The position numbers and the translations under genes were made by a program. 64,000 nt of DNA from Eledone cirrhosa (taxonomy: Eukaryota). Positions 16,024-48,837 of this stretch are shown one piece after another; the first letter of the stretch is position 1, and each line of letters opens with the position of its first letter. The notes beneath the pieces are model-generated. The model made no database searches. It saw nothing but the letters and a program-made list of their open reading frames with translations, and was not told where the DNA came from. The stretch is from positions 46,376,001 through 46,440,000 of the forward strand of contig OZ024750.1 of the NCBI GenBank assembly GCA_964016885.1, given 5' to 3'.

Positions 16024-16492
16024 GGAAAGTTATATTTAAATTGTTGGGTTACAACTAGTAAATATTTATAACTGATATAAAAGCACTCAACAAGTATTTG
16101 GAGTATATTTACGATATTAAATAAATGGAAACTATATTTATAAAACCATATTTATTTCATTATATATATTTCAGGGATATCATATTAACAATATGTTATG
16201 CCTTCTTCAGACAAAATACAATATAGACAGTTTTATAGATAAATAGATGTGACATACCGTTCAACATCGACTTGTATTTGAAAAAGTTGATTTGGCAGTA
16301 TCAACGCCAAATCAACTTTTTCAAATACAAGTCGATGTTGAACGGTATGTCACATCTATTTATCTATAAAACTGTCTATATTGTATTTTGTCTGAAGAAG
16401 GCATAACATATTGTTAATATGATATCCCTGAAATATATATAATGAAATAAATATGGTTTTATAAATATAGTTTCCATTTATTTAATATCGTA
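16024..16492. mobile_element. Fold-back cassette, family A (187-bp arms 16110-16296 / 16306-16492, tail 16024-16109) in (TA)n
   Basis: The arms read as exact reverse complements around the 9-nt loop AGTATCAAC. TA runs flank both sides. Confidence 0.92.
16384..16449 (+). ncRNA. Type I hammerhead ribozyme motif (mirror copy on - strand at 16153-16218)
   Basis: TATTTTGT-CTGAAGA-AGG..stem II..CCT-GAAA-TATATA-TA^-ATGAAATA. Helix I pairs over 8 bp including two G-U pairs. Confidence 0.75.
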
Positions 16493-16539
16493 TATATATA
16501 TATATATATATATATATATATATATATATATATATATAT

Positions 16540-16955
16540 ATATATATAAAATTCTTTGTCTCTCTCTGTCTGTTTGTCTGTTTGTCTGTCTGTCTGGGTG
16601 TCTGTCAGTGTATCTGTCTGTTCCTATGCATTCTCAATATATGTATGTGAGTGTATGTGAGTGTGTGTGAGTGTATATGTGAGTGTAAGTGTGAGTATAT
16701 ATGTTTAGGCAACAATTTATTCATTTGTACACCAACAAAAAATTACACAATCAACATTGTTTACCCTAAGGTGCGTCAAGATTGACACATTTTCATTTCT
16801 AAATTGTATTATCATTACAATTTCGATATTTTTTTGATAATATAAATATACTTTGAAATAATTATGAGAAATAAAAACATATCTTCATATTTATTGTTTA
16901 CTAATCTGAAGGAGAACAGCAGTAACCCGGGCAACGCCGAGTAATTCAGCCACTG
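16540..16955 (+). mobile_element. Helitron-like non-autonomous element
   Basis: tatataaaatt..(GTCT)n start and CCCGGGCAACGCCG end, the same ends as 32933-33881. Related ends occur at 51095-51126 (-) and 55130-55300 (-). Confidence 0.55.
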
Positions 16956-17884
16956 TATATATATATATATATATATATATATATATATATATATATAGTG
17001 CTACTTATCTGATATTTGCATTGCTTTATTGTGCTACAATAAAACTCACCTCCTACATATATATATATATATATATATATATATAGTTACAGAAGATCCC
17101 GTTAAGGGTGAAAGCAGCGATTATTCTCATATTTACACATATTTTTTCCCCCCGATGTGACCCGTCTATTTCGTTCTTACTGCTTCCTCTTTCTCTGTAT
17201 CTTTACCCTCTCTAACAGTCACTCTCTCTGTTAGCCTCTTCTTCACCCTTCACTCACTCACTCTCAGTTACTACCTCTCCTCCTCCTCCTTCCCGTTTGA
17301 CCTGTGCGTAATTATTTTCTTTCGCACGCTTGGCCAGGCCGGTTCGCCTTTTTTCTCTCTCTCGTCTACGATTTCACAGAACTTATGTTCACCGCATTCA
17401 CGGACTAAACCCCTTCTTCCTCCCGTTAGACCTGTGCGGAATTCCTTCCTTGCTCACATTTCAACCAGGTTTGATGGTCTTTATTCTCTCTCGTTCACGA
17501 TTTCACCGAACTTATATTCATGGAAATTTGGGACTTGACTCGTTCTTCCTCACTTTTCGTTGCTTCACCATCTTTGTTTGTTTACACTCTCGCTGTTCCC
17601 TTTATTTACGTGTCCCAACGACTTTCTTTAGCCGTTGCTCGCACCAACCGGAGGTATATGGTCTTTAAAGCGAAGTAATACCGATGATGGTTGGAAGATC
17701 ACTGATGAAGGACCACTTTATTCATATATATATATATATATATATATATATATATATATATAACAAAGTTCTTTCTAACAAAGTTCTTTCATCGCACATC
17801 TGCAACATCATCAGTGGTACTATTATGTTCCTCATGTTGTATTGTATATCTACGCCAAGTGATAATACAACAGGAGGAACATAA

Positions 17885-17935
17885 TAGTACCACTGATGAT
17901 GTTGCAGATGTGCAACGAAAGAACTTTGTTAACTA
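17885..17935 (+). ncRNA. Hammerhead motif, family B (fold-back 17776-17931, tail to ~18090)
   Basis: CTGATGA-T-GTTGCA-gatg-TGCAAC-GAAA-GAAC-TT. Antisense copy at 17776-17832. Helix I is imperfect. Confidence 0.65.
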
Positions 17936-18454
17936 TATATATGTGTTTATATCTATATTATATCTGTATCTTTGAGCTGTGGTCAGTCAATGATAAACAT
18001 TGAGGACCAAATGAATTAACTGCTGACATATAAAAGATACAGAAGCGAAAACCAACCAAACAGTGAGTGTGTTCTGTTATTATTTCTGTTATATATATAT
18101 ATATATATATATATATATATATATATATATATATATATATATATTCTGTTTTATATATATATATATATAGTAATAAAGTAGAGGCATAACTGCAAGCTAG
18201 CGCACATTCATGTTGCGATCGGACTTTTACCTCCTTACTATACACACTCACCATTTATTACAACTCCGATTTATAGTACGCTCAGTCTTCGCTCGGCACA
18301 CACACTCTCTCTCTCTCTCTATATATATATATATATATACACACACACACACACACACACACACACACACACACACACACACACACACACACACACACAC
18401 ACACACACACACACACACACACACATATATATATATATATATATATATATATTA

Positions 18455-19352
18455 GAAAGTGAGGTTGTTTTTTTTTACAAAATGAAAAATAACCGAGGTG
18501 TCCTACACGAGTGAAAGTATAAAGAAAAAAGGGTTGAAATCGAAAATGCAACTGGAGTCTTATTTAAAAAAATATATATATATTTATTTGGTTCCTTTAC
18601 CGGTTTCGCAGTTCTTCTGCTTTTCAAAAGTAGAGTTGAGATGGAGGGTCGTGGTTTGTCTCACATCTGGTTGGTCTTTGAATGTTACTTGTTTTATATG
18701 GAGAAAAGTGGCTCGAAACGCTAGCCTTTTAGAGAAGTAATGTGATTGGTTGGTCAATAATTATAATAAATTTCGCGCCAGTTCGCGTTACAAAGTTCTT
18801 CAAACAAGGGGGGGGGGGGGCCGGTTGTTTTTTCAAATATGAGTGTTTGAATTTCTTTTTACTTAAAAAAAAAAAGGGCTCAGGAAGGCTTTTTTTTAAT
18901 AAACGTAACTTGATTGGTTATAAATGAAATTATGGCTGTCACGTGAACAAGTTTTCATTAAATTTCGCCCCGCTATTTGGAAATTTATTCTGTAGCCTTT
19001 TTAGAGAATTTTATGAATCTTATGACACCCCAGCGAACTAACCATATTCACTGAACCAGAACAAATCCTCCCATCCCATTTCTCTTGACCATTATCTTTT
19101 GCTTGTCATAAAATTCTCTAAAAAGGCTACAGAATAAATTTCCAAATACGGGCACGAAATTTAATGAAAATTTGCTCACGTGACAGACATAATTTCATTT
19201 ATAACCAATCAAATCACGTTTATTAAAAAAAAGCCTTCGTGAGCCCCCTTTTTTAAGTAAAAAAAAATTCAAACACTCATATATGAAAAAACAACCTGAG
19301 CTCCCACCACTTGTTTGAAGAACTTTGTAACGCGAACTGGCACGAAATTTAT
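18455..19352. mobile_element. Fold-back cassette in (TA)n (~250-bp diverged arms 18765-19016 / 19106-19352)
   Basis: Imperfect inverted repeat. The unpaired left part carries the U3-A8 hammerhead. Confidence 0.8.
18595..18630 (-). ncRNA. Hammerhead variant with U3-A8 core (second copy on + strand 48206-48240)
   Basis: CTT-TTGAAAA-GCAG-aagaa-CTGC-GAAA-CCGG-TA^-AAG. Confidence 0.6.
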
Positions 19353-19880
19353 ATATGTATATATATATATATATATATTTCGTTTCTGAATTTGTTTAGC
19401 AACATGACCCTCCCAAAGTATAACAATATATATATATACATATATATATTGTGAAAGCAGGAAAGTACTTATTCAATTAACACTTATTTAATATTCTACC
19501 ATACTATTTCATTCTAATAGCAGGTGAATAGGCAGCATTGGTAGAGAGTCAGACATGCTTAACAGCGTGGTTACGTCCCTTTACGATCTGAGTTCAATTC
19601 CCACCGAGGTTAACTTTGCCTTTCATCCTTACGAGGTCGATAAAATAAAGTACCAGTAATGTACTGGGTAATTGCTGGCCTTGTGCCAAAAGTAGAAACA
19701 ATTATAATTTTAAAGGATTGCAAATAAAACGATTTGATCAGACAAAGTTGGAATTCCTTTTATTAATATAATCCTCTATACACAATCATGCACACCCGAG
19801 TATATTTATTTATATCTATATCTATCTATCTATCTATATATATATATATATATATATATATATATATATATATATATATA

Positions 19881-20050
19881 TAACGGAGGAAATGTGGTAA
19901 GGAACCAAGTGGACCATAACGCACCAAAGTACTCAATACTTAGGGTAGTAGAGTGGCTAATAGGAACGAGTAGGACCCAGACGGCTGAGCTCAAGCCGTT
20001 TCGACATCGAAACGGCTTGAGCTCAGCCGTCGGGGTCCTACTCGTTCCTA
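19881..20050 (-). mobile_element. Fold-back cassette, family C (44-bp arms, 2-nt loop, 80-nt tail)
   Basis: Arms 19961-20004 / 20007-20050 with TA runs on both sides. Same family as 47201-47405 and window bases 1-10. Confidence 0.9.
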
Positions 20051-47731: not shown

Positions 47732-47832
47732 AATATGGTTTTATAAATAGTTTCCATTTATTAATATTATTGATATATATATATATATATATATATATAT
47801 ATATATATATATATATATATATATATATATAT

Positions 47833-48110
47833 AACTGGCCGGCGCTACTATATAGGCACACTAGGCAGCCGACTAGGGCAGTGATTTCAATGTCACATTT
47901 CTAAAAGTCAACGAACAATTTTGAAAAATAAATAAATAAATTCCTGTTTTATTGTGGGTCGGTTTTTTTTATCCTTGTTTATTTCATACAGGGACAAATA
48001 AATGTTGAAACACCTTTGTTCTTAATTTATTCTTTATACATTTTTAAATTGATATTTTCCTTGCAGAAATTAACCTAGCCTAGGGTGCCAGATAGACTGA
48101 CACCGGCCCT
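47833..48110. mobile_element. Harbinger/hAT-like MITE with GGCCGG termini
   Basis: Ends GGCCGGCG.. / ..CACCGGCCCT with CTAGGG subterminal motifs. Confidence 0.5.
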
Positions 48111-48382
48111 ATATATATATATATATATATATATATATATATATATATATATATATATATATATATATATGCGAGAAAAACCACAAACCCTCCATCTTAA
48201 TTCTACTTTTGAAAAGCACAAGAACTGCGAAACCGGTAAATATATATATATATATATATATATATATATATATATATATATATATATATAAATATATATA
48301 TATATATATGTGTGTGTGTGTGTGTATATATATATATATACAATATATTAATAAATGGAAACTATATTTATAAAACCATATT

Positions 48383-48448
48383 TATTTTATTATACATATT
48401 TCAAGGGCAACCAAGGCAAATTATGGTGCGCTTTCATCAGATAAAATA
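48383..48448 (-). ncRNA. Type I hammerhead ribozyme motif, family A (unpaired copy)
   Basis: Minus strand reads TATTTTAT-CTGATGA-AAGcGCACC...GGTtGCcCTT-GAAA-TATGTA-TA^-ATAAAATA, with a perfect 8-bp helix I. Confidence 0.78.
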
Positions 48449-48671
48449 CAGATTTGTTTTATAAATAAATATTGACCTACCCGGAAAAAAAGACAACATT
48501 AACGGTTGGATCTTCCTGGATATATATATATATATATATATGCAAAAGTTCTATTTAAATTGTTGGGATACAACAAGCAAATATTTTTATAACTGATATA
48601 AAGCACTCGACAAATATTTGGAGTAAATATACGATATTAATAAATGGAAACTATATTTATAAAACCATATT

Positions 48672-48736
48672 TATTTCATTATACTTATTTCAAGGATACC
48701 ATGTTAAATTATCGTATGCCTTCATCAGATAAAATA
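48672..48736 (-). ncRNA. Type I hammerhead ribozyme motif, family A (left arm)
   Basis: TCATCAG at 48722-48728, with TTTC and helix I in the expected reverse-complement positions. Confidence 0.7.
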
Positions 48737-48772
48737 CAATATATACCAGTTTAATAAACCTGGTATATATTG

Positions 48773-48837
48773 TATTTTATCTGATGAAGGCATACCATAA
48801 TTTAACACGGTATCCTTGAAATATGTATAATGAAATA
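48773..48837 (+). ncRNA. Type I hammerhead ribozyme motif, family A
   Basis: TATTTTAT-CTGATGA-AGGcATACC...GGTATCCTt-GAAA-TATGTA-TA^-ATGAAATA, in the right arm of fold-back 48630-48879. Confidence 0.8.

Follow-up and report, generated by a model that had tools for sequence, protein, structure and literature searches.

Predicted hammerhead motifs of an Eledone cirrhosa locus as truncated 3' ends of a (TA)n-inserting Penelope-like retroelement

Seven hammerhead motifs in five insertions

The stretch analysed here (hereafter the window: 64,000 nucleotides of Eledone cirrhosa, assembly GCA_964016885.1, contig OZ024750.1, positions 46,376,001 to 46,440,000, forward strand) carries seven predicted hammerhead ribozyme motifs of one family (family A), whose parent appears to be a Penelope-like element (PLE). 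A first-pass annotation had listed seven copies, and all their starts and strands were recovered by a pattern search of the window. The pattern was made from the described features of these copies, and measures repetition, not function; it matched the window exactly seven times and none of 100 dinucleotide shuffles. The motif runs in the order helix I 5' strand, CUGA(U/A)GA, stem II, GAAA, an 8-nt stem III region, A17 and helix I 3' strand. CUGA(U/A)GA, GAAA and UA^ were present in 7/7 copies, as annotated, and the quoted stem II and helix I variants read as written in the sequence. In Rfam, no hammerhead family was found among the best 150 of 198 window matches at E<=5.

All seven are real motifs, but they represent only five insertions (Table 1), since two pairs are inverted duplicates (16104-16296/16306-16498, 193 bp, 99%; 48624-48752/48757-48885, 129 bp, 96%). 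The five insertions are non-coding, measure about 180-470 bp each and are all bordered by (TA)n; the copy density in the window is above the genome average. An eighth, partial copy lacking CUGAUGA occupies the minus arm of insertion 3. Helix III, annotated as a near-palindromic UAUAUA, had to be corrected to an 8-mer: three copies read AUAUAUAU, three read AUAUGUAU, and the remaining one has a broken AUAAGUAU. A small inverted repeat lies just 5' of helix I in two subfamilies (window 47606-47645 and 48480-48519), adjoining their 5' truncation points; the arms at 47605-47643 are ATCCAGGAA...TTCCTGGAT.

Table 1 Family A insertions and hammerhead motifs in the window, and loci of the sister family.
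Feature	Positions	Strand	Details
Insertion 1	16024..16490		Head-to-head pair of 3' fragments in (TA)n; minus arm with ~90-nt tail, end 16024; plus arm end at inner site, 16490
Hammerhead motif	16153..16218	-	Stem III AUAUAUAU; predicted cut after 16161
Hammerhead motif	16384..16449	+	Identical to 16153-16218; predicted cut after 16441
Insertion 2	37037..37300	-	Single 5'-truncated fragment with tail; 93% to full-length unit; 5' edge approximate
Hammerhead motif	37167..37231	-	Stem III AUAUGUAU; predicted cut after 37175
Insertion 3	47445..47772		Older subfamily; minus arm 47445-47600 tailed, truncated just before GAAA; plus arm 47601-47772 ends at inner site
Hammerhead motif	47671..47731	+	Short loop II; stem III AUAUAUAU; predicted cut after 47723
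Insertion 4	48341..48519	-	Single fragment, end at inner site; (TA)n 48520-48541 common with insertion 5
Hammerhead motif	48383..48448	-	U bulge in stem II; predicted cut after 48391
Insertion 5	48542..48877		Head-to-head pair, L055 subfamily; tailed minus arm ends 48542; plus arm ends 48877 (inner site)
Hammerhead motif	48672..48736	-	Stem III palindrome damaged (AUAAGUAU); predicted cut after 48680
Hammerhead motif	48773..48837	+	Stem III AUAUGUAU; predicted cut after 48829
Sister family, stem III AUGCGCAU	L061:7507	+	
Sister family, stem III AUGCGCAU	L050, L100, L114, L007		

The parent element and the ends of its copies

A genome search with a tailed copy yielded 1,522 candidates, 40 of which were scored (97-100% identity). 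At 6/30 loci, chosen for long upstream sequence, a common AT-rich region led into a protein C-terminus and further into a reverse transcriptase (RT). The full-length copy L055 comprises an inverted truncated arm, a 5' pseudo-long terminal repeat (pLTR) with a hammerhead, a frameshifted open reading frame (ORF), a 1.5-kb 3' untranslated region (UTR), a 3' pLTR with a hammerhead, and (TA)n. Its hammerheads, one per pLTR, are located at positions 4065 and 8097, a spacing that equals the unit of 4,032 bp, and in family A an ATG lies about 50 nt past the outer of the two 3' ends described below. The anatomy known from PLEs is thus seen: partial tandems forming pLTRs, 5' truncation, an inverted 5' copy and a tail at one end.

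The protein was analysed in the copy L054, which has a 678-aa open frame without the N-terminus and with the RT motif YRDD. At E<=1e-10, 530 of the 7,999 scored candidates were homologous to it, including a protein of Argonauta hians; the best 120 were 32-49% identical. The AlphaFold model of L054 (pLDDT 89.2) had the telomerase TERT as its best structural match in the Protein Data Bank (PDB; E 2.9e-9, TM score 0.37). Further motifs were RWR near the N-terminus in L055 (RWK or RWR in the homologs), SDKT at L054 residues 57-60 (DKG changed to DKT), a linker CNCRNKSNC (CxCX5C), and CDLC...E...N...CRH, in which CxxC and CxH surround a conserved E and N. VVY...YVG...R...E...N is conserved in the homolog alignment and may correspond to the GIY-YIG endonuclease consensus; no nuclease was among the fold matches listed for the whole L054 model. 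By these sequence features, the parent is a 4.0-kb PLE carrying the published Hydra-clade motifs. More distant Hydra-like ORF fragments (30-52% identity to L054) were observed at L062, L071, L079, L087, L094 and L057 in the evenly sampled and flanking DNA, indicating that the genome holds several distant Hydra-like families; a downstream hammerhead search at seven loci with such ORFs linked no hammerhead to an ORF.

Copies of family A are very numerous. The exact pattern GAAA-stem III-helix I had 34,563 genome matches, with equal forward and reverse counts at chromosome level (reversed control, 0), and a looser motif pattern had 43,947. A profile search of sixty 10-kb stretches, evenly spaced, gave 14 hits, of which 11 showed the core by eye; from these the copy number in the 3.0-Gb assembly extrapolates to about 55,000 (95% range 27,000-98,000). 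In contigs of two sequencing runs (kind unrecorded), depth was very high for the family and low for unique flanks, evidence of its presence only.

The 3' ends of these copies fall at two sites past the predicted cut, and 188 of the 257 anchored copies end in a TA run at one or the other: the inner site (108 copies) at +46 to +62 from the predicted cut, with its peak at about +48/+49, and the outer site (80 copies) at +125 to +150, with its peak at +138, about 90 nt past the inner one. Of the remaining copies, 30 continue into the ORF; the other 39, some of them cut by locus edges, could not be assigned to either class. When copies are joined head-to-head, one arm of each kind is present in 41 of 47 pairs (one pair had both arms long, one both short and four an unclassified arm), that is, in 41/43 classifiable pairs. 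When the 22 pairs at loci retrieved with the tailed query are set aside, 20/25 are mixed (20/21 classifiable, p=2e-5), and the three pairs of the window (insertions 1, 3 and 5) all conform. A tail at one end has been noted qualitatively for PLEs (PMC8557442) and tied to two RT starts (PMC11167929). The arms of a pair differ at fewer polymorphic sites from each other than from copies of the same subfamily elsewhere (0.79 vs 2.41, n=42, p=4e-7), and in one pair they differ at nine. Both arms of a pair are therefore likely to derive from one source transcript, later conversion between the arms being the alternative. Homology priming was rejected as a general explanation of the two 3' ends: the L055-type subfamily has TATAT and ATATA there, and the inner end reads TAAATA, ATATTA or AATATT in others.

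Variation of the predicted hammerhead fold and its putative dimer helix

Selection on RNA structure in the source elements had been proposed in the first-pass annotation from the window copies. The five window insertions were insufficient alone for that claim, which is supported for the type I fold once genome-wide copies are used. The set of 257 anchored copies was reduced to 201 by removing partial and junction-selected copies, and 193 were parsed; in loci picked by the pattern, that choice makes GAAA, stem III and the 3' strand of helix I look more conserved than they are. CUGANGA, GAAA and NUH are present in this order in 7/7 window copies and near-invariant in the parsed set, in which the 12 constrained core positions had one variant common to at least three loci, and core position N7 was U in 118 loci, A in 9, G in 5 and C in 3. 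Variants shared between loci increased per site from the core (0.08) to helix I (0.31), stem II (1.0) and loop II (1.58), and rare variants were 0.58 per site in the core and 0.67-1.0 in the other regions. Minor pair states still paired in 12/23 shared cases and in 2/29 private ones (Fisher p=4e-4; C.C position excluded).

In 27 representative copies, 96.3% of the cells were paired (helix I, 98.6%; helix II, 93.0%), and 21 cells were changed on both sides, compared with 0-3 in slid controls. Changes on both sides affected 3/9 pairs of stem II and 0/8 of helix I. The structure-preserving variation claimed for stem II was thus found, but weaker than stated, and the G-U swaps claimed for helix I do occur, but one-sided only. 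The fourth position of stem II is a conserved C.C mismatch (123 loci), and its first opposition tolerates U.U and A.C, which agrees with published Hydra hammerheads, whose cores are written with extra flanking bases. Inserted copies do lose the core: one subfamily had 3,455 exact matches genome-wide, rising to 3,606 when six core bases were freed (151 core mutants) and to 3,707 when six bases of stem II were freed instead (252 variants). Taken as sequence comparisons, these data support a hammerhead fold kept by selection in the source lineages and decaying in the inserted copies.

Helix III would consist of three pairs and a 2-nt loop in a monomer, and of an 8-bp palindromic duplex in a dimer. 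The 8-nt palindrome is intact in 6/7 window copies, with a predicted dimer duplex of -2.2 to -3.2 kcal/mol. A sister family found at five loci (Table 1) has the same helix I, a homologous tail, a (TA)n end and a longer stem II, and its stem III is AUGCGCAU, which differs from AUAUAUAU by two double changes; other stem III palindromes occur in five further hammerhead families of the loci. The sister family supports helix III as a putative dimer helix between two hammerheads, with no need for a likeness to the target. Small palindromic helices III and a dimer arrangement have been described for PLE hammerheads (PMC4209133; PMC6765202). At L154, L155, L162, L172 and L175, the TA-like stem III was enlarged by slippage into a longer microsatellite.

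Interpretation, neighbouring elements and known systems

We consider it highly probable that a (TA)n-inserting PLE, likely of the Hydra clade, left the seven motifs behind as 5'-truncated copies of its 3' end, and that its pLTR carries a predicted dimer-type hammerhead, likely kept by selection in the transposing source copies and decaying once inserted. The mechanism we propose starts with the element nuclease, which would nick both strands of the palindromic (TA)n target. The RT would then begin within the RNA, at about +49 or +138 relative to the ribozyme cut and once per strand, so that one of the two head-to-head arms would receive the 90-nt tail; most cDNAs would stop early. In tandem transcripts, by analogy with published relatives, two hammerheads may pair via the palindromic stem III and cut slowly, probably aided by protein.

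Several results weigh against this reading. Pfam gave no significant family for the parent ORF and four homologs, and a PDB sequence profile search with the parent protein gave no match. Hydra-clade membership, likely as it is, was assigned from motifs. The samples were picked by similarity or by exact pattern. Conservation extends to the downstream flank (0.53 shared variants per site), doubly changed pairs (3) were no more numerous than in shuffles (455/500), and the compensated pairs go back to a small number of events (by parsimony, 4-6 changes per pair on a tree of 42 tips). RNAalifold gave no consensus structure for the 67-column alignment, and the minimum free energy fold differs from the hammerhead in 7/7 copies, the hammerhead-compatible fold being 0.7-5.0 kcal/mol higher. 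The 30 best full-length copies all start away from the predicted cut, with 5' ends 21-1,308 nt upstream of it, and junctions of (TA)6 to the cut site numbered 108, compared with 46 at a control site with shorter overlap. Of 30 such junctions inspected, 22 were scored as truncations and 8 retain core sequence; no pile-up of 5' ends at the predicted cut was found in the full-length copies and junction counts. As the 5' ends ignore the cut and the 3' ends lie past it, the inserted RNA would be mostly uncut, or cut and re-ligated: the hammerhead is a predicted self-cutting RNA whose putative cleavage does not visibly shape the insertions. These ends agree with Poseidon_Ac (PAc) of the green anole, whose core mutants insert normally in vitro.

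The same ends suit a different explanation: the fold would be kept for transposition, as a module that binds protein or pairs RNA, and cleavage itself would be incidental or a vestige. PAc core mutants insert unaffected and no reads end at the cut site (PMC11167929), and Naiad elements proliferate without canonical hammerheads (PMC8557442). However, 12 near-invariant core bases, a free N7 and a kept NUH are the established requirement of catalysis, and the PAc ribozyme cuts once protein is added (PMC11167929), so that we regard this explanation as unlikely. Somewhat more doubtful still is a specific form of pairing, in which the sibling pLTR RNAs of one transcript would kiss via stem III and load a dimeric RT-nuclease, whose subunits would prime on the two nicked (TA)n strands at +49 and +138. 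If true, it would explain the shared variants of head-to-head arms and the single tail per pair, and would answer what PLE hammerheads are for.

Movement of the copies as small hammerhead RNA circles, in the manner of non-autonomous retrozymes or elements similar to short interspersed elements (SINEs), is largely refuted and very improbable. All the window copies are short and non-coding, and retrozymes are reported to derive from PLE pLTRs (bioRxiv 10.64898/2026.07.22.740005), but there is no tandem array at the window sites, the scattered 5' ends run on into the parent 3' UTR and ORF, and the inverted pairs with two 3' ends are the anatomy of PLE insertions.

The likeness of helix III to the TA target, to which the first-pass annotation had drawn attention, did not prove meaningful. 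Were stem III to mimic the target, letting the RNA pair with nicked target DNA near the ribozyme, the presence of AUAUAUAU or AUAUGUAU in nearly all family A copies and the 3' ends of the L055-type subfamily would be explained; but the sister family with AUGCGCAU likewise ends in (TA)n, published TA-targeting Hydra elements have other stem III palindromes (PMC8557442 File S2), the insertion ends lie 49 and 138 nt downstream, away from stem III, and the TATAT overlap of the inner end is not maintained in other subfamilies, leaving this idea with hardly any probability. Just as remote is host-level selection on genomic copies as functional ribozymes, for example in introns: the window holds a thrombospondin type 1 exon and core mutants are somewhat rarer than stem II variants at six control sites, but some variants at those sites are inherited from the source, the core and the flanks have similar numbers of rare variants per site, one window copy has a broken stem III, 4/7 motifs lie inside long inverted repeats and would be buried in a hairpin, and the chromosome-level counts are equal on both strands.

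Other elements were observed in the window and the sampled loci. A second hammerhead family, common in the genome loci, occurs in the window at 17814 (-), 17893 (+) and 30624 (+) (core CUGAUGA, stem II, GAAAGAACUU). Beside its 30624 copy lie ORF fragments at 29327-29953 (+) and 30032-30520 (-), which look Penelope-like by their motifs, the first without a Pfam hit. The fragment at 53967-54389 (+), with CRLC...CRH, resembles a PLE endonuclease C-terminus; 3' of it, at 54525, there is a CUGACGA...GAAA motif, possibly of a third PLE family. Tandem hammerhead units were present at L082:281-3381 (-) (a retrozyme-like array, about 310 bp spacing, hammerhead in each listed unit, stem III ACGCGU) and at L016:147, 613 and 1079 (+) (three units spaced at 466 bp, with stem III ACUAGU, of a family also dispersed in other loci). 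The window also contains an element similar to long interspersed elements (56290-61663, -) with an open 1,153-aa ORF2 (endonuclease, RVT_1, zf-RVT) and a 533-aa upstream frame; the host exon with the thrombospondin type 1 domain (9364-9783, -; Pfam E 1.2e-7); and tandem tRNA-SINE-like repeats (23133-24744 and 42467-43330), which may resemble the octopus OK SINE.

Hammerheads in the pLTRs of Penelope elements have already been described and the finding itself is expected; the family is new here and very abundant. Its tens of thousands of copies in graded subfamilies make selection in source lineages separable from decay in copies, family A and its sister show a compensated change in the putative dimer helix, and the near-strict rule that both presumed RT start sites are used once per inverted insertion constrains the mechanism of PLE insertion. 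No description of family A and no tail counts per inverted pair were found in the literature searched, the scope of which excluded subscription papers, Repbase/Dfam and most of the PMC8557442 supplement.

The Hydra-clade PLEs, among which Hydra-1_Obim is the one octopus family listed (PMC8557442), share with family A RW(K/R), DKT, the CxCX5C linker, CxxC and CxH, the (TA)n target, and, near the 3' end, a hammerhead in which stem II is flanked by one extra base per side (core ctgatgaN...ygaa, PMC8557442 File S2); their C-terminal endonuclease has a putative counterpart in family A. Family A differs from them in its 4.0-kb unit with a 1.5-kb 3' UTR (published Hydra families are generally <3 kb), in a hammerhead sequence unlike Hydra-1_Obim and all others listed, in a tail of about 90 nt (30-40 bp is given for PLEs), and in the internal C.C mismatch of stem II, unlike published Hydra hammerheads (PMC8557442). 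Metazoan PLE hammerheads in general are likewise of type I, lie in pLTRs, have a long stem II and a small palindromic helix III predicted as a dimer, and form families rich in covariation, with thousands of single and opposite-strand copies from truncated PLEs; family A has a longer helix I (8 bp, extendable) and a first stem II opposition R-U (R, purine), whereas theirs is a conserved G-C (PMC4209133). Non-LTR retrozymes share a type I hammerhead related to PLE pLTRs (bioRxiv 10.64898/2026.07.22.740005; PMC7229834), but consist of tandem non-coding units, whereas family A consists of dispersed truncations of a coding element. The likeness to PAc, in part predicted for family A, includes a tail bracketed by two RT starts, an AT-rich target cut on both strands, a hammerhead dispensable for insertion in vitro and a protein predicted to be a dimer. 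PAc belongs to another clade, and its ribozyme and start sites overlap the ORF start (PMC11167929), whereas the ATG of family A lies past its outer end; the one-tail-per-pair rule was counted here in family A.

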